Source: Ignavibacteriaceae bacterium
GTDB taxonomy: Bacteria; Bacteroidota; Ignavibacteria; Ignavibacteriales; Ignavibacteriaceae
Length of the DNA: 64,000 nucleotides
Direction: 5' to 3'
Assembly (NCBI GenBank): GCA_023231105.1
Contig: JALNWB010000001.1
Span: 18,276 to 82,275 of the forward strand
Part shown: piece by piece, positions 28,557 to 48,706 of the stretch
How the letters are laid out: each line of letters opens with the position of its first letter
Position numbering within the stretch: the stretch's first letter is position 1
Translations under genes and position numbers: made by a program
The notes under the pieces: generated by a model
What the model was told of the DNA's origin: nothing
Databases searched by the model: none
Seen by the model: the letters and a program-made list of their open reading frames with translations, nothing else

Positions 28557-31500
28557 TGAAATTATTTGGAATGACAATAGCAAAGAGTAAAGATAAACCG
28601 AAATTGCTTAAAGCATTCGGGGTAATATTAAAAGCCTTCGGTACGCAGTTAGGAATGTTTAATGATGAAGTGATTGAAGGGCAGACGAAGCAGAAAGACG
28701 GGCACAGCTATGTAGTTAAGAGAAGTAACAAGAATCCTCTTGTAAAAAGATTATTCAGGGCGGATAAGGAGGAGAGTAAGCCGAAGGAACTGAGTTTGTT
28801 TGATAAGAAAGTTACAGTAGGCAGTCGGCAATCGGCAGTCGGCAATCGGGCAGAAAGTAAACCACCGAAAGCGGAACCAATAAGACACACAGAGCAACCG
28901 GAAGCAAAGGACGATCTCTTCAATCAACCAAAGGAAGAGAGAAAAGAGCCGAAGGCAGAAATTAAAGTTGTTAAGGGGAAGAAAAACCGTAAAGAGATTA
29001 ACGCTAAGGTTGAGGAGTTATTAAAGACAAAGAAAAATGATGAGATGAGCGCTGAGGATGTTGAATTATTAGCGCAGTACACCGGACGCGGCGGATTGTT
29101 AGGAGATACGCTTGAGGATATCTCGCTTAATGAATTTTACACACGTAAGGATGAAGCGGAATTTATTTGGGATATGATAGGGAAGTTAGGTTTTAAGGGA
29201 GGAAATGTTTTAGAGCCTTCGATGGGAACGGGAATTTTTGTTGAGACAGCACCGGAGAAAGCGCTTGTAACCGGAATTGAGATTGAGGAGACGAGTGGAA
29301 GAATCGGACAGATTTTACACGGCAATGAACACGATATCAGAATTCAGAGTTTTGAACAGTTTGTAAAAGACTATGATAATATGGGAGCGGATTTAGAAGG
29401 GGGAGAATATGACGCGATAGTTGGGAATTGTCCGTTTGGTAAAAGGGGATTGAGCGCAATGGATGATAGGGAAAAGAGCGATATAAAATTCCATGAGCAA
29501 TATTTTATTGATCGAGGTTTGGATATGTTGAAGCCGGGGGGGATAATGGCAATGATCGTTCCAACAAGTATAATGGATAACCAACTTAATCAATGGCGGG
29601 GAGAGGTAAACAAAAAAGGGGAATTTTTAGGAGCAATACGAGTACCAACCGGAGCATTCAAACACACAGACGCGCAAGTAACCACAGATATAGTTTTCTT
29701 TAAGAAAAGACCGCCGGAAGTAATTGATCACTTGAACAAACTTTCCAAGGAAGAACTTGGGGAAGCTTATGACGATATGGTAATGGATGCTGATTTTGTT
29801 TCGGGGAATTTCTTTAAGAATAATCCGGAGTATGCATTGGGCACGGAAACAAGCGGAATGTTCGGAATGAAGATTTGGAAGGGAGATATTACAAAGGCTG
29901 ATCTTGAAAAAGTCGGTGAGTTATTAAACCATGAGGCAAGAGATTACAGCAGTTTAGGAATTGATGTTAGTAAATATGGTGAGTTAGAAAAAGAACTTGA
30001 ACCGGGAGATGTAAAGATATTAAACGGAAGAACTTACATACTTAATAAAAACCATAGATGGGAAAGATTGAAAGATCAGGAAGTAGTATTACAAAACTTA
30101 CCGGAAGACATTAAAAAACTTGGTATTACGAGTTGGGATGAATGGAGAATTAAGAGTGAGGACACAGCTTATTTATACGGTTTGGATAAGGACCAACTTA
30201 AACTTTTCGGACAAACAAGAATAGTTAATGAGCTGGATGGATACAACGGCAAGAATGATTTTCAGACGGAATATTTAACAAAGGGAGTTGTGTTAGGTTT
30301 AGCAGTAAAGGATTTCAGAAAAGAGTTGCAAGACGGAAGATTATCCGCTGAAGAGGCGCAAATGGAAGCGGGGAAACTGAAGATATTGCTAAAGGATTTT
30401 ATTGAAAAGTATGGACACCCGATTGAGAATTTAAAGTTAAATAAATTTTTTAAGAACAGCGGAAACGCGCCACTTCTTAATTTGGCAGGTAGCTATGATA
30501 AGAACGGCAACACTATCAAGATGTTTGATGATCCGCTGTCTTTTTATAAAGTTTATCAAACGAAGAGCGAAATAGGAACAGTTGATAGGAATAATATTGT
30601 TTCGGTAATCGGTTTTCTTTTTGCAAATAATTTTCCAACGGATTATCAAACGGTACGAGGCGAGTATGAGGGGGATGGAGATATTGAAAGAGAGCTTGCA
30701 TATAGCGATGAAATTTATTTTGATGAAGAAGGAAATTATAAACCGAAAGAGGAAGTCCTTTACGGTTACATTTACGAAAAAATTGACGCTTGGGAAAAGC
30801 AACGAACCGAACTGAAGAAGGAATCCAAGAACGAAAAGTTAAGCGATAAAGAAAAAGAACTTAACGCGCAAAAAATGCGAAAGCTCGAAGATCAGATAAT
30901 TGAGGCGAAGACGAGAGCGAATATCAGGGAGATTAAGCAGCTACCAATAATGTTAAGCGATGCAGGGAGTATTTACGATATTGGTATTTTAAACAAATAT
31001 TTGGAAGAAAAGATAGGGGCGCATTTCTTAGGTGAATTACGCAAAGATGAAAAGAGTGGTTTCATTCTTCCGGTTGATGAGAGTTCGGCAAAATTATATT
31101 TAAGTTATGCAGATATTACGAAAGAGGGGAAATCAACAGATGTAAAACGGGAATTGCGGGATCTCTTTAATAAAGATGAGCATCCGTTGTTATTTATGAT
31201 TTTAAATAAGATGAATGGATTAGGTTTACCGGCATTACGGACAGAGGAAGGGATTGCTAAGAAAGAACAAGTCTTACAACTTGAAACAGATTTTAAGCAG
31301 TATTTATCCGATAGTGAAGAAGCTGATAAAATTGCAGATACTTATAACAGGTTGTTTAATTCTTACATACAAAAAACGTATGATGAAAAACCGATAGAGG
31401 GAATAAAGCATTTTGCTTATGATAGAGTAGTTGGAAAAGACGCAAGCGGAAAAGATATAACCGGAAAAGATAAGGCGGGCGGGCATACTTGGGCAACGGT

Positions 31501-36375: not shown

Positions 36376-36382
36376 TTTTTGG

Positions 36383-36420
36383 AACCTCCGGAGTGAAAGC
36401 TTCGGGGGTTTTTAGTTTTT
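36383..36420 (+). terminator. intrinsic terminator
   Basis: The stem AACCTCCGGAG/CTTCGGGGGTT (two G-U pairs) is followed by TTTTAGTTTTT. Confidence 0.7.
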
Positions 36421-41575: not shown

Positions 41576-42360
41576 AAATTATTGATGAAAATATTGTACG
41601 GAGTCTAAGACGGTTCGGGCAAACGGTAAAGCATTACCCGGGCACGTTGTGCAGTTGCATTGGTGAAAATAACGGTGTGCCGTTATTAAACCATACTTGC
41701 AACCAGGGTTATTATTACGGAGCGCCGGAAACAATTATTGCAATACGCACGGCGATATCTTACAAATACCTAAACACGCCGCAAGGGGTAATTTATGACG
41801 GAGGCGCAACATTTACCATCCCAAGATTGAATTTAAGCGGAGCCGAACAGAGAGCTTATTCTGTTATTACGCACGGAGATATTTTGGTTTGTGATAATAA
41901 GACCAGACGTGACACAGATATACTGAAGCGTGGAACCCGTGATTTTATTTACGCTTTTGATATTACCGAAGTAATTGGCATATACCGTAACAACACAAAA
42001 TATGATGCAACGGATTACACAATTATTGAGGATGATTATAAAACGTTACTTGGTGATGACGGTTTACCGCTTACCGATGAGAACGGAGTACCAACGGGAG
42101 AAGTAAGAGACAAAGCGGATATTGTGGGTAAATTAATGGCGGTTGTTTGGGCAACCGGCAAAGGACCGGCAACGGGTGAAAGTTACACGGTGGAATTCAT
42201 TTGTGCTCAACAGTTTAAAGTATGGGAAGATGCGGGAAGTGATAGGGGAACGGATGAAAACAGACTACCGAAAAAGATGCTTACCGTATTAAGAAGATTT
42301 GTTACACCGGTGGAAAATAACCTTGACACCGTAGAAACGACACAGGAGTTGTACACATGA
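41569..42360 (+). CDS. virion structural protein (by position)
   Basis: An ATG ORF coupled by ATGA to polyvalent protein 3. Confidence 0.45.
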   Translation: MLKIIDENIVRSLRRFGQTVKHYPGTLCSCIGENNGVPLLNHTCNQGYYYGAPETIIAIRTAISYKYLNTPQGVIYDGGATFTIPRLNLSGAEQRAYSVITHGDILVCDNKTRRDTDILKRGTRDFIYAFDITEVIGIYRNNTKYDATDYTIIEDDYKTLLGDDGLPLTDENGVPTGEVRDKADIVGKLMAVVWATGKGPATGESYTVEFICAQQFKVWEDAGSDRGTDENRLPKKMLTVLRRFVTPVENNLDTVETTQELYT

Positions 42361-45300
42361 TAATTACATTATTTGGAAAGTCAATAAAATTTGGGAAGAA
42401 CCCGAACCAGATAGATATGTTTGCAACCGCCGGAGCGGAAAAGGAATTTGCGCCAGGGGATAAACGCAGACTTGAACTTACAAGCGGCGGGAAGTTGCGT
42501 TGGAAGAATGCGGATGAGGAAGGGAGTGGAAAGTTGAAGGTTGAAAGTGGAAAGAATGCAACTCCGAACAATCAAAACATTAGAGAGGAAAAAGGTTTAT
42601 TCAAAGAAGCGTATGAACAAACGCAAGATGAATATGCGCAAAAGATGTTCAGAGGACCAATAGCTGAAGTTAAAAAATTTAAAGACCCGAATGATTTGGA
42701 AGATATTGCAATCTCTAACGAACAGCACAAAGTTATTATTAAACACGCTATTCGAGAAGGTAAAGAGATCCCGGATGCAGTAATTGAACCTTACAAAAAT
42801 TCGCATTGGGCGAAGGAATATTTGAGTAAAAAAGTTGATTACTCACAAGAGCTTATAAACACCGCGCAAACAAGTAAGACTTTCGATAAGTTTTTAACAA
42901 ATGTTAGAATCCATGTATTCCCAAACGAGTTTCTTAAAAAAGAGTTGGGGTTAGGAGATGACAACGTACAAAATAGAAAAAAACTTAATGACTATTACAA
43001 CAGGCAAAAAGCAGAGCATAGAGAACAACGTAAAAAAGATAAAGAAGAAGGGGATAAGGCAATTGCCGAATTGCATGTAGATCAAATAGAAAAATTAGCA
43101 CTTCAACAGTATGGCGGGAAAGTGGGGAAAGAAAAAAAGATTGATGATGATAAAATTGCAGAGTTGTATAGGAATAGCCCGATATCTATTCAAGTGGATA
43201 AGATGAGCAATAAAGCGCAAGAAATTTATAATAACGCCGGGAACCAGGCAGAAAAACAAATTGCATTTGATCTTTGGAATTATGGGAATGGGATACAGGA
43301 TGAGTTTGTAGAAAAGTACGTTAAAGGGGAAAAGATAAGTACTGAAGATGTTATGGAAGTAAAGAGAATTGCAAACATATTGATAAAAGGCGCTGATGAA
43401 GAATTTGAGAAAGTAAAAAATGGGAGTAAGGCAAAAATTACGATCAAGAAAAAGAAAGAAGAGCCGGTTAAAAAAGAACCTTGGGAGAGAACTTTATCGG
43501 ATATGATACAAAATGAAATTACAAACCGTGAAATTTTTGGACCGGAAAGTTATCCTAAATGGATAACGGATAATACTAAAGTGGAAATTGCAGACCGAAG
43601 AACCGGAATTGTTTATGATCATTTTACTCTTGCAAGCCCAACACAGGAAAGATTAAAACATTATGGGAAACTTGCACATTATGAAATTATAAAGCGAGCC
43701 TTAGTTGACGGCAAGCCCGTACCGCCGGAAGTGTTGAGGGATTATCCGGAGTTGGAAAAGGAAACTTCACTTATAAGTGAATTACCTTTTACTGCATCAT
43801 TAAAAAAAGATTTAGAAAGTTACGGCGAAAAGACAAAAAATATTTTAGTTGAAGGGACGTATCAACCATTTGCTGATTGGTTTAAGAAACAATACCCGGA
43901 TCAAGAATTTAAAATCGGTAAACATCAAGATGGAGGACCATTTATCGCTATAACTGGAGGAGGAGAAATTAGATATTCAGCTTATCAGAAAGATAATTCT
44001 GAAAACGAAATAAAATTATCAAAGTTAAAAAAACGGAAAGAAGTTCTTGGGGAAAAACTTTACTCCGAGAAACTTAAAAATCACAAGAAAGTATCTAATA
44101 TTGGTTTTGGCACAAATATGAGGGGATATCAAAAAACGAAACAATTAAGTTTTAGAAGAGAAGATGAATTGCAACAAAAAATAAAAGAGATTAACGAAGA
44201 AATAAAAGATTTATTACCAAAGAATGTTAGTGAATCAAATAAAAGCATCTTCAAAAATTTATTTAAAGCCTTTGGGAAACAAATATCAATGTTTGGAGCG
44301 CAGCCATATCAAAAGGAAGGGCAGACGAAAGAGGGACGCGGAGGCACGTTGAAATTAACGAGGGACAGCTCGGGAAAGGGAGCGCATTGGAAGTTAGTCG
44401 GCAAAGGGCAATCGGCAGTGGACGGTCAGCAGTCGGCAGTTGGCAGTGGGCAAGAAAAACAAACTGGCGGAAAGATAATTACTCCGGCTAATGCTTTTGA
44501 ATTGTTGCAGGATAAAATTGGTAATAGTGTGTTACTGCAGGACAATGAAGGAAACTTGTTAGGTGAGGGAGCGTTACAGCTTGTGAACGAAAACAGTGAA
44601 GGCAATTATTCTTTGTTCTTAAAAGAGGCAAATGGATTTGATTCTCTCGTATCGATACCAAAGAACCAGGCAGTTGTACAGAAGGAAGACGGGATAAGTT
44701 TTAAGTTTGCAGATAAGAATATTTTAATATCAACAATTGAGAAAAGCAAAATTCCCAATAAGCCGGTTGAAATGGAAAAAGCCGAAGAGAACGCGAAACA
44801 TGCGCGTAACTTAGAGAAGATGCGGAATTTTAACGAATGGCAAAAGAAAGCCGACAGTTATGCAAGAACAGCGAACGGGCAAAAGGATTGGTTTTTTGGT
44901 GATATGGAAATTGCCGCCGACGCTGAAGGTTTAGAGTTTGGAGTGAAGAACCGCATCATTAAAAAAGCCGATACACTGTTTAAGGAAATAAAGAGGAACG
45001 CAACAAGGGATGATAAGGCTGAGATATACAGCGCACTAATCGGAGCATTTGAAGTGAAAAGCGTTGCTAAGGCAAAAGCTGTTATTTCCAACTTAAAGAA
45101 GAAGGGGTATGAAATAGACGCTGATCAGTTGGACCAACCGAAGGATAAAGAAAACTTTTTTACAAGGATAAAAATAAGCAAAGGGGAAAACGATCCTTTG
45201 CCGAAGGAGTTGCAGTTTGCAACCGGTGAATATGCCTTGGCATTTGAAGAGTGCGCGAAGAAACCAAATCCTTTAAGAGAAACAGAAATGAGTTTGGGCT

Positions 45301-46385
45301 TAAAGATCAATGCTGAAGGGGTGCCGGAGTTTAACACAATTAAGAAACAATTGTTTAACCTGGCCGGAGAAGGATTGGGACAATTATGGGTTACGGGTGG
45401 TTTACCGGGAAGCGGAAAGAGCAGCACACTTGGAGGTGAGTTTTATAAAAACAAAGTTTTGATAGATCCCGACAAAATAAAATATATGCTTGCTGAGGAA
45501 AGAGGAATATCGCAAGAAGAGGTAAATAAAAAGCCTTGGGAATTGCATGAGGAAAGTTCGAATATTGCCAAGCATTTGGTCCGTGAAGCAATACGCGAAA
45601 AGAAAGATGTAATTTATGATGTTACCATGAAGGGGACGGAAAATTTAAACGATCTTCTTTACATGGTGAACAGCGATACTTTTCAGGCGAATGCTGAGTT
45701 TATTCATCTCCCGATTGAAAAGGGAATTGAGCGCGACAAAGCAAGAGGAGAAAGCGGCGGAAGAAGCATAGGCGCTGATCTGTATAAGAAATTGTTTGGT
45801 GGTTATCCTACACACAAAGCTTTTTTTGAGTTGAAGGATAGTTTTGATAATTTTAGAGTATATGATAACAGCGCACCGTTGGGAGAAGGGGCAAAACTAT
45901 TTTATGTAAAAAATGACGGACAAGAAAAAATATTGCACCCGGGAATTCACGATGAATTCAAGAAATTTGGTTTGAAGCAAATGGGGAAATCACTATATTT
46001 GAGATACCAAAGGAGAAAATTAGTGAAAGCAATCGAACCCACACCCAAAACAAACGAAACCCAATTACCGGAAAGCGAAAAGTTAAAACTTCTTTTAGGT
46101 TTTAAAGAGCAAGGGATAGACCGGGACATTGATCCGGAACAAGATTTCTTTGCTTTGGGAATGCTGAAGATGCACGGATTGATCGATGAGAATATGAATC
46201 TAACACCGGAAGGTGAGCAGAAATATCAATTTCAATTTGGCAGTAAGTTTAGCAACATGAACGGAGAAGAAAGCGATGTTGAACAGGTCGTGAATCCGAG
46301 AAAAAATATTGCTGAAGAAAATAAAGAGAAAAAACCAGCCATAAAAGCATTCGGGAAAGAATTCAATAAAAAGAAACCTGAGTAA
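42357..46385 (+). CDS. polyvalent protein 3 (1342 aa) with duplicated H..IIK.A...GK.(I/V)P..V(I/L) modules and C-terminal Zeta-toxin-like P-loop kinase domain
   Basis: The Walker A motif LWVTGGLPGSGKSSTLGGEFY, together with VLIDPDKIK, HEESSNIAKHLVREAIREKKDVIYDVTMKG and RVYDNS, resembles Zeta toxin/UNAG-kinase domains. Two copies of a polyvalent-associated module are present (HKVIIKHAIREGKEIPDAVIEPY and HYEIIKRALVDGKPVPPEVLRDYPEL). A second internal leader is present (FKAFGKQISMFGAQ...). Confidence 0.85.
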   Translation: MIITLFGKSIKFGKNPNQIDMFATAGAEKEFAPGDKRRLELTSGGKLRWKNADEEGSGKLKVESGKNATPNNQNIREEKGLFKEAYEQTQDEYAQKMFRGPIAEVKKFKDPNDLEDIAISNEQHKVIIKHAIREGKEIPDAVIEPYKNSHWAKEYLSKKVDYSQELINTAQTSKTFDKFLTNVRIHVFPNEFLKKELGLGDDNVQNRKKLNDYYNRQKAEHREQRKKDKEEGDKAIAELHVDQIEKLALQQYGGKVGKEKKIDDDKIAELYRNSPISIQVDKMSNKAQEIYNNAGNQAEKQIAFDLWNYGNGIQDEFVEKYVKGEKISTEDVMEVKRIANILIKGADEEFEKVKNGSKAKITIKKKKEEPVKKEPWERTLSDMIQNEITNREIFGPESYPKWITDNTKVEIADRRTGIVYDHFTLASPTQERLKHYGKLAHYEIIKRALVDGKPVPPEVLRDYPELEKETSLISELPFTASLKKDLESYGEKTKNILVEGTYQPFADWFKKQYPDQEFKIGKHQDGGPFIAITGGGEIRYSAYQKDNSENEIKLSKLKKRKEVLGEKLYSEKLKNHKKVSNIGFGTNMRGYQKTKQLSFRREDELQQKIKEINEEIKDLLPKNVSESNKSIFKNLFKAFGKQISMFGAQPYQKEGQTKEGRGGTLKLTRDSSGKGAHWKLVGKGQSAVDGQQSAVGSGQEKQTGGKIITPANAFELLQDKIGNSVLLQDNEGNLLGEGALQLVNENSEGNYSLFLKEANGFDSLVSIPKNQAVVQKEDGISFKFADKNILISTIEKSKIPNKPVEMEKAEENAKHARNLEKMRNFNEWQKKADSYARTANGQKDWFFGDMEIAADAEGLEFGVKNRIIKKADTLFKEIKRNATRDDKAEIYSALIGAFEVKSVAKAKAVISNLKKKGYEIDADQLDQPKDKENFFTRIKISKGENDPLPKELQFATGEYALAFEECAKKPNPLRETEMSLGLKINAEGVPEFNTIKKQLFNLAGEGLGQLWVTGGLPGSGKSSTLGGEFYKNKVLIDPDKIKYMLAEERGISQEEVNKKPWELHEESSNIAKHLVREAIREKKDVIYDVTMKGTENLNDLLYMVNSDTFQANAEFIHLPIEKGIERDKARGESGGRSIGADLYKKLFGGYPTHKAFFELKDSFDNFRVYDNSAPLGEGAKLFYVKNDGQEKILHPGIHDEFKKFGLKQMGKSLYLRYQRRKLVKAIEPTPKTNETQLPESEKLKLLLGFKEQGIDRDIDPEQDFFALGMLKMHGLIDENMNLTPEGEQKYQFQFGSKFSNMNGEESDVEQVVNPRKNIAEENKEKKPAIKAFGKEFNKKKPE
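42527..42554 (+). repeat. tandem heptamer array, TTGAAAG type (4 units), inside polyvalent protein 3
   Basis: The units are TGGAAAG TTGAAGG TTGAAAG TGGAAAG. They encode SGKLKVESGK. Confidence 0.8.
44395..44450 (+). repeat. tandem heptamer array, CAGTCGG type (8 units), inside polyvalent protein 3
   Basis: The units are TAGTCGG CAAAGGG CAATCGG CAGTGGA CGGTCAG CAGTCGG CAGTTGG CAGTGGG. They encode VGKGQSAVDGQQSAVGSG. Confidence 0.85.
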
Positions 46386-47493: not shown

Positions 47494-47564
47494 AGAATTA
47501 GTAAGTTTGTACTGCAATATAAATCATACCCGTGATTTAGAAAGCTCCTTTGAATAGTTCCTGG

Positions 47565-47597
47565 AATCCCGCTGCAAAGAGCGGGATTTTTCATTTT
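47565..47597 (+). terminator. intrinsic terminator ending the head block
   Basis: A 9-bp stem (AATCCCGCT/AGCGGGATT) is followed by TTTTCATTTT. Confidence 0.8.
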
Positions 47598-48229: not shown

Positions 48230-48706
48230 ATGAAAACCGAAGCCGCATTAGTTTCAAAAAGAATAAAGAAAGAATTGAAAGAACTTTTTCCCAAGATAAA
48301 GTTTTCCGTAACCAGCAGTAACTATTCCGGCGGGAATTCTGTTCGTATTGAATATAATGATTTTTTACCGACAAGTGTTTTGGAAGATCATTTTGAGAAA
48401 TATGAAGATGGGAAATTTGATAGTTCCCAAGATTTGTATGAGTACAAAAAAAACGCACATGAAGTAAATCCTAACGGTATTTTAGAAGCCCTCCCAAGAA
48501 CAAAATATTTGTTTTTCGAGCGGAGAGTTTCGCCGGAAATGAGAGAAGAAGCGAAAAAATATATTTTGAATACTTTTGATTGTGTCGAGAAACACGAAAC
48601 GCAAATACACACAGCAGTACATCGGTTAACCGTAAATATGGATTTAAGTTTTGGTTTTGACAAAAAGTATGCAGAAAATTTTCCTCACGGGTTATTTGAT
48701 TATTAG
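48230..48706 (+). CDS. hypothetical protein resembling a polyvalent-protein-associated (LPD-type) domain
   Basis: KRIKKELKELFPKIKFSVTSSNYSGGNSVRIEYNDFLPTSVLEDHFEKYEDGKFDSSQDLYEYKK resembles a domain I recall from conjugative-element and phage polyvalent proteins (..FP.VKFSV.S..ysGG.Si.v.w.dgP....v......Y..G.FDgm.D.Y.Y). The exact family name is uncertain. Confidence 0.45.
   Translation: MKTEAALVSKRIKKELKELFPKIKFSVTSSNYSGGNSVRIEYNDFLPTSVLEDHFEKYEDGKFDSSQDLYEYKKNAHEVNPNGILEALPRTKYLFFERRVSPEMREEAKKYILNTFDCVEKHETQIHTAVHRLTVNMDLSFGFDKKYAENFPHGLFDY

Follow-up and report, generated by a model that had tools for sequence, protein, structure and literature searches.

The DNA stretch analysed here (the window) comprises 64,000 nucleotides (nt) from an Ignavibacteriaceae bacterium and corresponds to C1:18276-82275, C1 being a contig of 119 kb in a 4.19-Mb assembly of 307 contigs. 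According to its PHROG matches, the window is a tailed-phage structural region. Among the head genes lies an open reading frame (ORF; 42357..46385, + strand) for a protein of 1342 amino acids (aa), hereafter P0001, whose start ATG has a 4-base overlap with the stop of the 263-aa ORF before it and whose N-terminus, MIITLFGKSIK, is kept in the homologues P0002, P0006 and P0007. P0001 carries a P-loop kinase domain of the Zeta_toxin family, and the analysis concerns the relationships, active site, genomic setting and probable role of this kinase.

In Pfam-A, the best family for P0001 was Zeta_toxin (PF06414), which covered aa 1012-1172 with an E-value of 1.7e-11 and 44.4 bits, against a gathering cut-off of 22.3 bits, and reached 48.1 bits when the kinase domain was scored alone; AAA_33 came second at 5e-8. 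This resemblance is far beyond chance, and with the best Pfam, PDB-sequence and fold matches all being Zeta, the kinase is a member of the Zeta/PezT family. An earlier note on this DNA had proposed a Zeta-toxin-like kinase at 45380-45900, and the Pfam ranking bears it out. The proposed span was essentially right (the domain runs from about nt 45378 to 45932) and the quoted motifs are all present, namely the Walker A string GGLPGSGKSSTLGGEFY at aa 1014-1030 (nt 45396-45446), LIDPDKIK at aa 1035-1042, HEESSNIAKHL at aa 1064-1074 and DVIYDVTMKG at aa 1084-1093. The note had also placed the domain at the end of a 1342-aa protein; the length is correct, but the kinase is not at the very end, as about 150 residues follow, including a conserved helical module.

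The kinase belongs to a large clade. When 1.84 billion cluster representatives were searched with the domain by phmmer, 1320 proteins of 176 to 4070 aa were returned at E <= 0.001, of which 114 reached E <= 1e-10, and all 38 sampled clade members match both Zeta_toxin (best 1e-34) and AAA_33 (best 3e-16). Since the single domain gave chance matches only when compared by phmmer with PDB sequences, a clade profile built from these 38 members was used instead. It matched Zeta (1gvn_B) at 2e-20, PezT (2p5t_B) at 6.7e-17 with 65 bits and the RNA-repair kinase Pnkp1 (4xrp) at 5.5e-16 with 62 bits, followed by PSTK, C. thermocellum Pnkp, AvrRxo1 and T4 Pnk at 1e-7 to 7e-6. A confident AlphaFold2 model was obtained for aa 1002-1192 (pLDDT 94, pTM 0.89), and Foldseek ranked its PDB matches in the order Zeta 1gvn_B, AvrRxo1 and C. 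thermocellum Pnkp, with template-modelling (TM) scores of 0.65-0.72 on the query. The match spans less than half of Zeta (TM score on the target, TMt, 0.48), and the lowest root-mean-square deviation (rmsd), 2.8-2.9 A, was obtained with the C. thermocellum Pnkp kinase, at a TM score of 0.74 on the target. Among predicted viral structures, the top matches were phage proteins of 346-1499 aa with TM scores of 0.72-0.80, the named ones being annotated 'Zeta toxin domain containing protein'; one match is a 1134-aa phage protein that bears the name 'Anti-CBASS protein Acb1'. Searches of NCBIfam and PADLOC gave no match. Among 50,697 phage records, the gene had no megablast match, and tblastn with the whole protein and with the kinase domain found weak matches only (24-30% identity); a scan of GTDB species genomes returned no relative.

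Across 151 aligned domain copies, the (near-)invariant signature reads GG.(P)G(S/A)GKS ... D.D.(I)K ... H-E-E-S ... D-(G)-T ... R...R.....GR ... DN. Eight residues of P0001, K1021, D1039, K1042, D1088, T1090, R1126, R1130 and R1136, are (near-)invariant in these relatives and invariant in 13 full-length homologues, T1090 nearly so. R1130 is found in 151/151 copies and R1136 in 150/151, these being the equivalents of Arg158 and Arg171, which contact the ATP phosphates; the position of K1042, three after the catalytic Asp, is K in 146 and R in five of the 151. In the profile mapping, E116 of Zeta corresponds to D1088 and T118 to T1090. As judged from the alignment, the ATP-binding and catalytic residues of the P0001 kinase are intact and amount to a Zeta-type machinery.

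The features of Zeta that recognise UDP-N-acetylglucosamine (UDP-GlcNAc, also UNAG), on the other hand, are by the same alignment not kept. UNAG binding is reported to need GTXR (Zeta G117-T121) as well as Asp67 and Glu100 (PMC6362051). P0001 has V1089-T-M-K1092 in place of GTXR, and across the clade the fourth position of the motif is K in 61 copies, D in 28, S in 20 and A in 20, with R in only 8 of 151. Glu100 is without a counterpart, the profile alignment placing it on A1071, with E1065 and E1066, which are conserved acids, two helical turns before that position; the clade-invariant H-E-E-S takes the place of Zeta P-Y-S-N at the start of this same helix. Given these departures, a Zeta-like specificity for UNAG is not upheld; polynucleotide kinases, besides, score almost like PezT. 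Enzymes with the Zeta fold do differ in their substrates, which include UNAG, UDP-N-acetylmuramic acid (UNAM) at the 4'-OH and NAD (PMC5923241).

Table 1. Coordinates of the kinase, its motifs, the other parts of P0001 and the surrounding phage features in the window
Feature	Position (nt)	Strand	Remarks
Zeta_toxin-family P-loop kinase domain of P0001	45378..45932	+	aa ~1008-1192; from Pfam, AlphaFold2, Foldseek and family profile
Walker A / P-loop GGLPGSGKSS	45396..45425	+	K1021 = Zeta K46; Lys in 148/151 relatives
D-P-D-K-I-K	45465..45482	+	D1039 = catalytic base Asp67 of Zeta; kept in 151/151 relatives
H-E-E-S	45546..45557	+	clade-specific, start of helix 3; Zeta reads P-Y-S-N there
D-V-T-M-K	45618..45632	+	aligned with Zeta E116-G-T-G-R120; Thr retained, Gly to Val, Arg to Lys
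Lid R1126...R1130...G-R1136	45732..45764	+	R1130 = Zeta R158, R1136 = Zeta R171
Leader tag 1, FGKSIKFG...NQIDMF...EKEFAPGDKRRLELTSGGKLRW	42357..42524	+	aa 1-56
Unit 1 cargo	42525..44234	+	aa 57-626; variable between relatives; no family match in P0001
Leader tag 2, KAFGKQISMFG...EGQTKEGRGGTLKLTRDSSGKGAHW	44235..44414	+	aa 627-686; then Q/S/A/V/G-rich linker to about aa 699
Unit 2 upstream of kinase	44454..45377	+	aa 700-1007; no known family
C-terminal region with conserved helical module DPEQDFFALGMLKMHGLIDENMNLTPEGE	45933..46337	+	aa 1193-1327; no known family
Start of third leader, IKAFGKEFNKK, then stop	46338..46382	+	from homologue alignment
Portal-like	17514		PHROG match
Terminator-like hairpin	36381..36412	+	upstream of protease-scaffold gene; probable left boundary of head-gene transcription unit
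Head protease and scaffold	36575		PHROG match
Major head protein	38020		PHROG match, 1.6e-65
Terminator-like hairpin	47563..47590	+	after 349-aa gene; probable right boundary of unit with capsid genes and P0001
Protein with endolysin-family matches	50420		PHROG match
Tail protein with lysin activity	58593		PHROG match
Baseplate	62259		PHROG match

P0001 is built of units headed by a leader of ~55 aa, which occurs at three places in the protein, the last being a shortened copy at the C-terminus (Table 1). The same leader opens the DarB-like protein of the window (MKLFG...KAFGTQLGMFNDEVIEGQTKQ), is shared with the giant ParB+ART protein of the phage and, in the more distant P0014-P0016, occurs at internal seams as well as at N-termini. 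The homologues of P0001 (n=12) are 47-86% identical overall and have in common the C-terminal half from about aa 626, whereas the N-terminal half varies and in five of them carries a RadC/JAB domain. P0001 stops just past the start of the third leader, a point beyond which P0008 and P0010 have additional units (…NPNVRRWQ…). This suggests that the leaders are the precise sites of unit gain and loss.

Unit 2 (aa ~700-1327) has the kinase as its recognisable enzyme, and the parts on either side of it, aa 700-1000 and 1196-1342, have no Pfam or PDB sequence match. An AlphaFold2 model of aa 700-1342 (643 aa; 7 close homologues) reached a pLDDT of 60 and a pTM of 0.37; in this low-confidence model, aa 700-1007 are predicted to be beta-rich, then to form long helices and then a small alpha/beta module. 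A cis-inhibitory module in P0001 is conceivable. A module of ~110-130 aa directly upstream of the kinase (45033-45356, aa ~893-1000) travels with it in P0014 and P0016, whose kinases are 42-49% identical, and could serve in substrate recognition or regulation.

The setting of the gene agrees with the earlier note, which had assigned it to the virion head module. Two terminator-like hairpins, at 36381 and 47563, enclose eight genes, namely the protease-scaffold and capsid genes, four smaller ones, the 1342-aa gene and a 349-aa gene. Two more giant genes stand among the head genes, encoding a 1698-aa ddrB-ParB + ART-PolyVal protein (ART, ADP-ribosyltransferase) and a 2038-aa DarB-like methyltransferase-helicase, and an LPD29 gene lies at 48230, 1.8 kb downstream of the P0001 gene. 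Relatives in IMG/VR are contigs of 28-92.6 kb, and the 92.6-kb one has a matching gene order: DarB-like, protease-scaffold-sized, capsid-sized and several smaller genes precede the homologue region, which continues with genes for 357 aa, 244 aa, the polyvalent protein and 305 aa, and later one of 572 aa. The earlier note was also right that no epsilon-like antitoxin is adjacent: ten neighbouring ORFs gave no match to an antitoxin family (Pfam, E <= 0.01), and no antitoxin domain in cis, of the kind that EzeT has, was matched within P0001 at E <= 1. A toxin-antitoxin (TA) module was therefore rejected, the kinase being internal to a 1342-aa late-operon gene with no antitoxin family in its neighbours or in P0001 itself, and such a role is very unlikely.

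In the reading that we favour and consider fairly likely, the kinase is an active-site-intact phosphotransferase of the Zeta_toxin family, carried as unit-2 cargo of a polyvalent protein that is packaged in the capsid and co-injected, and acts on a non-UNAG, nucleotide-type host substrate rather than in a TA system. The gene would be transcribed late together with the capsid genes, and P0001 would be packed into the head and enter the host with the DNA, as P1 DarB does. Packaging and co-injection are proposed because the leader is shared with the DarB-like protein and because relatives carry MuF and ART fusions: among ten large clade relatives examined, the kinase is fused to a Phage_Mu_F head domain in four and to ADP-ribosyltransferases in three. 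The genomic setting (head-gene unit, DarB-like leader, MuF-fused relatives) argues for a virion-delivered effector, in line with the earlier note, over a TA module. In the host, by analogy with Zeta and PezT, Lys1021, Arg1130 and Arg1136 would hold ATP, and Asp1039 would deprotonate a substrate hydroxyl, to which the ATP gamma-phosphate would be transferred. The substrate is most likely a nucleotide-type host molecule. UDP-GlcNAc, the classic substrate, is improbable in view of the altered UNAG-binding motif and of the clade-specific H-E-E-S in the substrate pocket. When the substrate classes are taken singly, a non-UNAG nucleotide-type small molecule is possible, short of an even chance, a UDP-sugar and a nucleic-acid 5'-OH are each unlikely, and what probability remains belongs to other substrates. 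Separately, the MuF-domain phage proteins P0018, P0020, P0026 and P0061 carry two or three tandem clade kinases, some with ADP-ribosyltransferase domains.

Several observations weigh against this reading. In the Pfam scan, the kinase is the sole domain of P0001 to match a curated family, and neither PF04233 (Phage_Mu_F) nor any other recognised head-anchoring domain was detected in the protein; Lys1092 might functionally stand in for the Arg of GTXR; and with the clade profile Pnkp1 scores nearly as well as PezT, the best PHROG match being phrog_505 'polynucleotide kinase' (1.9e-7), so that homology leaves the substrate class unfixed. A role for P0001 without packaging, in which it acts in the producing cell late in infection (e.g. 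in the shutdown of a host pathway before lysis) or as a prophage fitness or addiction factor, appears rather improbable. It would suit the lack of a recognised head-anchoring domain, the contextual nature of the case for packaging and the integrase-like gene on C1, with which the phage may be temperate; yet the place inside the head-gene unit is conserved in relatives, the leader also occurs in a DarB-like protein, the P1 homologue of which is a known packaged protein, MuF fusions are seen in clade relatives and, as regards an addiction module, no antitoxin-like neighbour was found.

Two further explanations concern the substrate. A classic Zeta-type UDP-GlcNAc/UDP-sugar kinase, delivered or expressed by the phage, would block peptidoglycan synthesis and weaken the wall, a function proposed in the literature (PMC5512222); we regard it as unlikely. 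By sequence and by fold the kinase has its best matches in Zeta and PezT, the equivalents of Asp67, Thr118, Arg158 and Arg171 are kept, E116 is conservatively replaced by D1088 and Lys1092 could substitute for Arg120, but the GTXR needed for UNAG binding (PMC6362051) reads VTMK, with R at its fourth position in 8/151, Glu100 is aligned with Ala1071, the domain is compact, ~190 aa vs about 270 aa in Zeta, and its fold match spans less than half of Zeta (TMt 0.48). Similarly doubtful is a role in mending broken RNA or DNA ends as a polynucleotide 5'-hydroxyl kinase, which could, for instance, counter host anticodon-nuclease or other nuclease defences in the manner of T4 PseT. It would account for the Pnkp1 match (5.5e-16) with the clade profile, the tightest superposition being that on C. 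thermocellum Pnkp (rmsd 2.8-2.9 A), the best PHROG, the PNK-like R-x3-R lid (R1126, R1130) and the actinophage tblastn matches annotated as polynucleotide kinase. Against it, no phosphatase or ligase domain was found in P0001 or its neighbours, all 38 sampled clade members match Zeta_toxin with a best value of 1e-34 as opposed to 3e-16 for AAA_33, and the conserved acidic H-E-E-S in the pocket would disfavour a polyanionic substrate. Moreover, at the position of K1042 the profile alignment shows Lys for Zeta too but Arg for Pnkp1 (and PezT); the corresponding Arg of T4 Pnk (R38) is presumably essential.

Zeta-like kinases in phage polyvalent proteins have already been described: Iyer, Burroughs, Anand, de Souza and Aravind (2017, J Bacteriol 199:e00245-17) reported zeta-toxin-like kinases fused to MuF or embedded in polyvalent proteins, and proposed that they weaken the wall during DNA entry (PMC5512222). 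P0001 is a further example, being a giant multi-module protein encoded among virion genes, with a Zeta-like kinase module, accompanied by a DarB-like methyltransferase-helicase, a DdrB-ParB + ART-PolyVal protein and an LPD29 gene, and having relatives that swap modules (RadC/JAB, MuF, ART, LPD1) or extend the C-terminus. It departs from that description in having one Pfam-recognisable domain only, in the ~55-aa leader tag that heads its units, which is unmentioned in the paper, and in its motifs, which do not support the UNAG substrate that the paper assumes. New here are the definition of the H-E-E-S clade, the assignment of the kinase to a unit that begins with a leader and, at the level of motifs, an argument that the substrate is probably not UNAG.

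With the Zeta and PezT toxins of the epsilon-zeta and PezAT type II TA systems (1gvn, 3q8x, 2p5t), the P0001 kinase shares the P-loop phosphotransferase fold and the conserved Walker A Lys, catalytic Asp, Thr118, Arg158 and Arg171. Unlike them, it is embedded in a 1342-aa protein, with no antitoxin gene matched in its neighbours, has VTMK for GTXR, no Glu100 equivalent and Asp for E116, and combines an extra invariant H-E-E-S and an extra Arg, R1126, with a domain about 80 aa shorter. The polynucleotide kinases (Pnkp1 4xrp, C. thermocellum Pnkp 4gp7, T4 Pnk 1ltq) resemble it in their compact kinase fold of ~170-190 aa, the Walker A, the Asp general base after strand 2 and the R-x3-R lid; in P0001, however, no phosphatase or ligase partner was found and the residue three after the catalytic Asp is Lys, not Arg. 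AvrRxo1 (4z8q), a Zeta-like NAD 3'-kinase and Xanthomonas type III effector, is likewise a Zeta-fold kinase delivered into another cell, as P0001 may be, and its second-best fold match (TM 0.70-0.72 on the query) stands beside a weak sequence relation (profile E 8e-7), another delivery machine and an antitoxin-like partner of its own. It shows that the Zeta fold can accept NAD-type substrates.

The 'Zeta toxin' label and the function of UNAG kinase should not be transferred to these phage kinases, the UNAG motif being missing in a clade whose metagenomic relatives number over a thousand (1320 representative clusters, E <= 0.001). P0001, for which packaging is proposed, adds a well-documented example of phages loading capsids with host-directed enzymes, and the real substrate of the H-E-E-S clade, once found, would reveal what these phage effectors, a common but uncharacterised class, do. 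At a more speculative level, the clade could constitute a phage-specific effector family, a virion-delivered counter-defence kinase whose substrate would be no cell-wall precursor but NAD or a nucleotide immune signal (a cyclic oligonucleotide or one derived from ADP-ribose), which it would inactivate by phosphorylation at DNA entry. The hints in this direction are the loss of GTXR, the conserved acidic pocket, the ADP-ribosyltransferase fusions and the structural relative named 'Anti-CBASS protein Acb1', and we hold it to be quite improbable as it stands. Within unit 1, a candidate RnlB_antitoxin match (43209-43391, aa 285-345) was rejected as noise at E 0.1 and 13 bits vs a cut-off of 27; this sub-threshold match is probably noise, and an anti-RnlA module would fit counter-defence cargo.

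The leader has a core of the form Q-h-[DSNG]-[ML]-F, which in the window reads QIDMF (42408-42422), QISMF (44280-44294) and QLGMF (28646-28660), with the variants QLDMF, QMDLF, QINLF and QTDLF in homologues. Across the three + frames of the window, this form is matched by only 5 pentapeptides, of which 3 lie inside leaders. The core closely resembles the bacterial beta-sliding-clamp-binding motif QL[SD]LF, e.g. QADMF in Pol III alpha; it may be a clamp-docking signal, or else the likeness may be a coincidence inside a tag for capsid targeting or processing. An integrase-family gene is located outside the window, near the start of the contig (C1:477-938), and with it the phage may be temperate or integrated. 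The assembly also holds three further Zeta_toxin matches above the Pfam cut-off outside the phage, at C21:7546-7866, C238:4-225 and C233:3761-4039.

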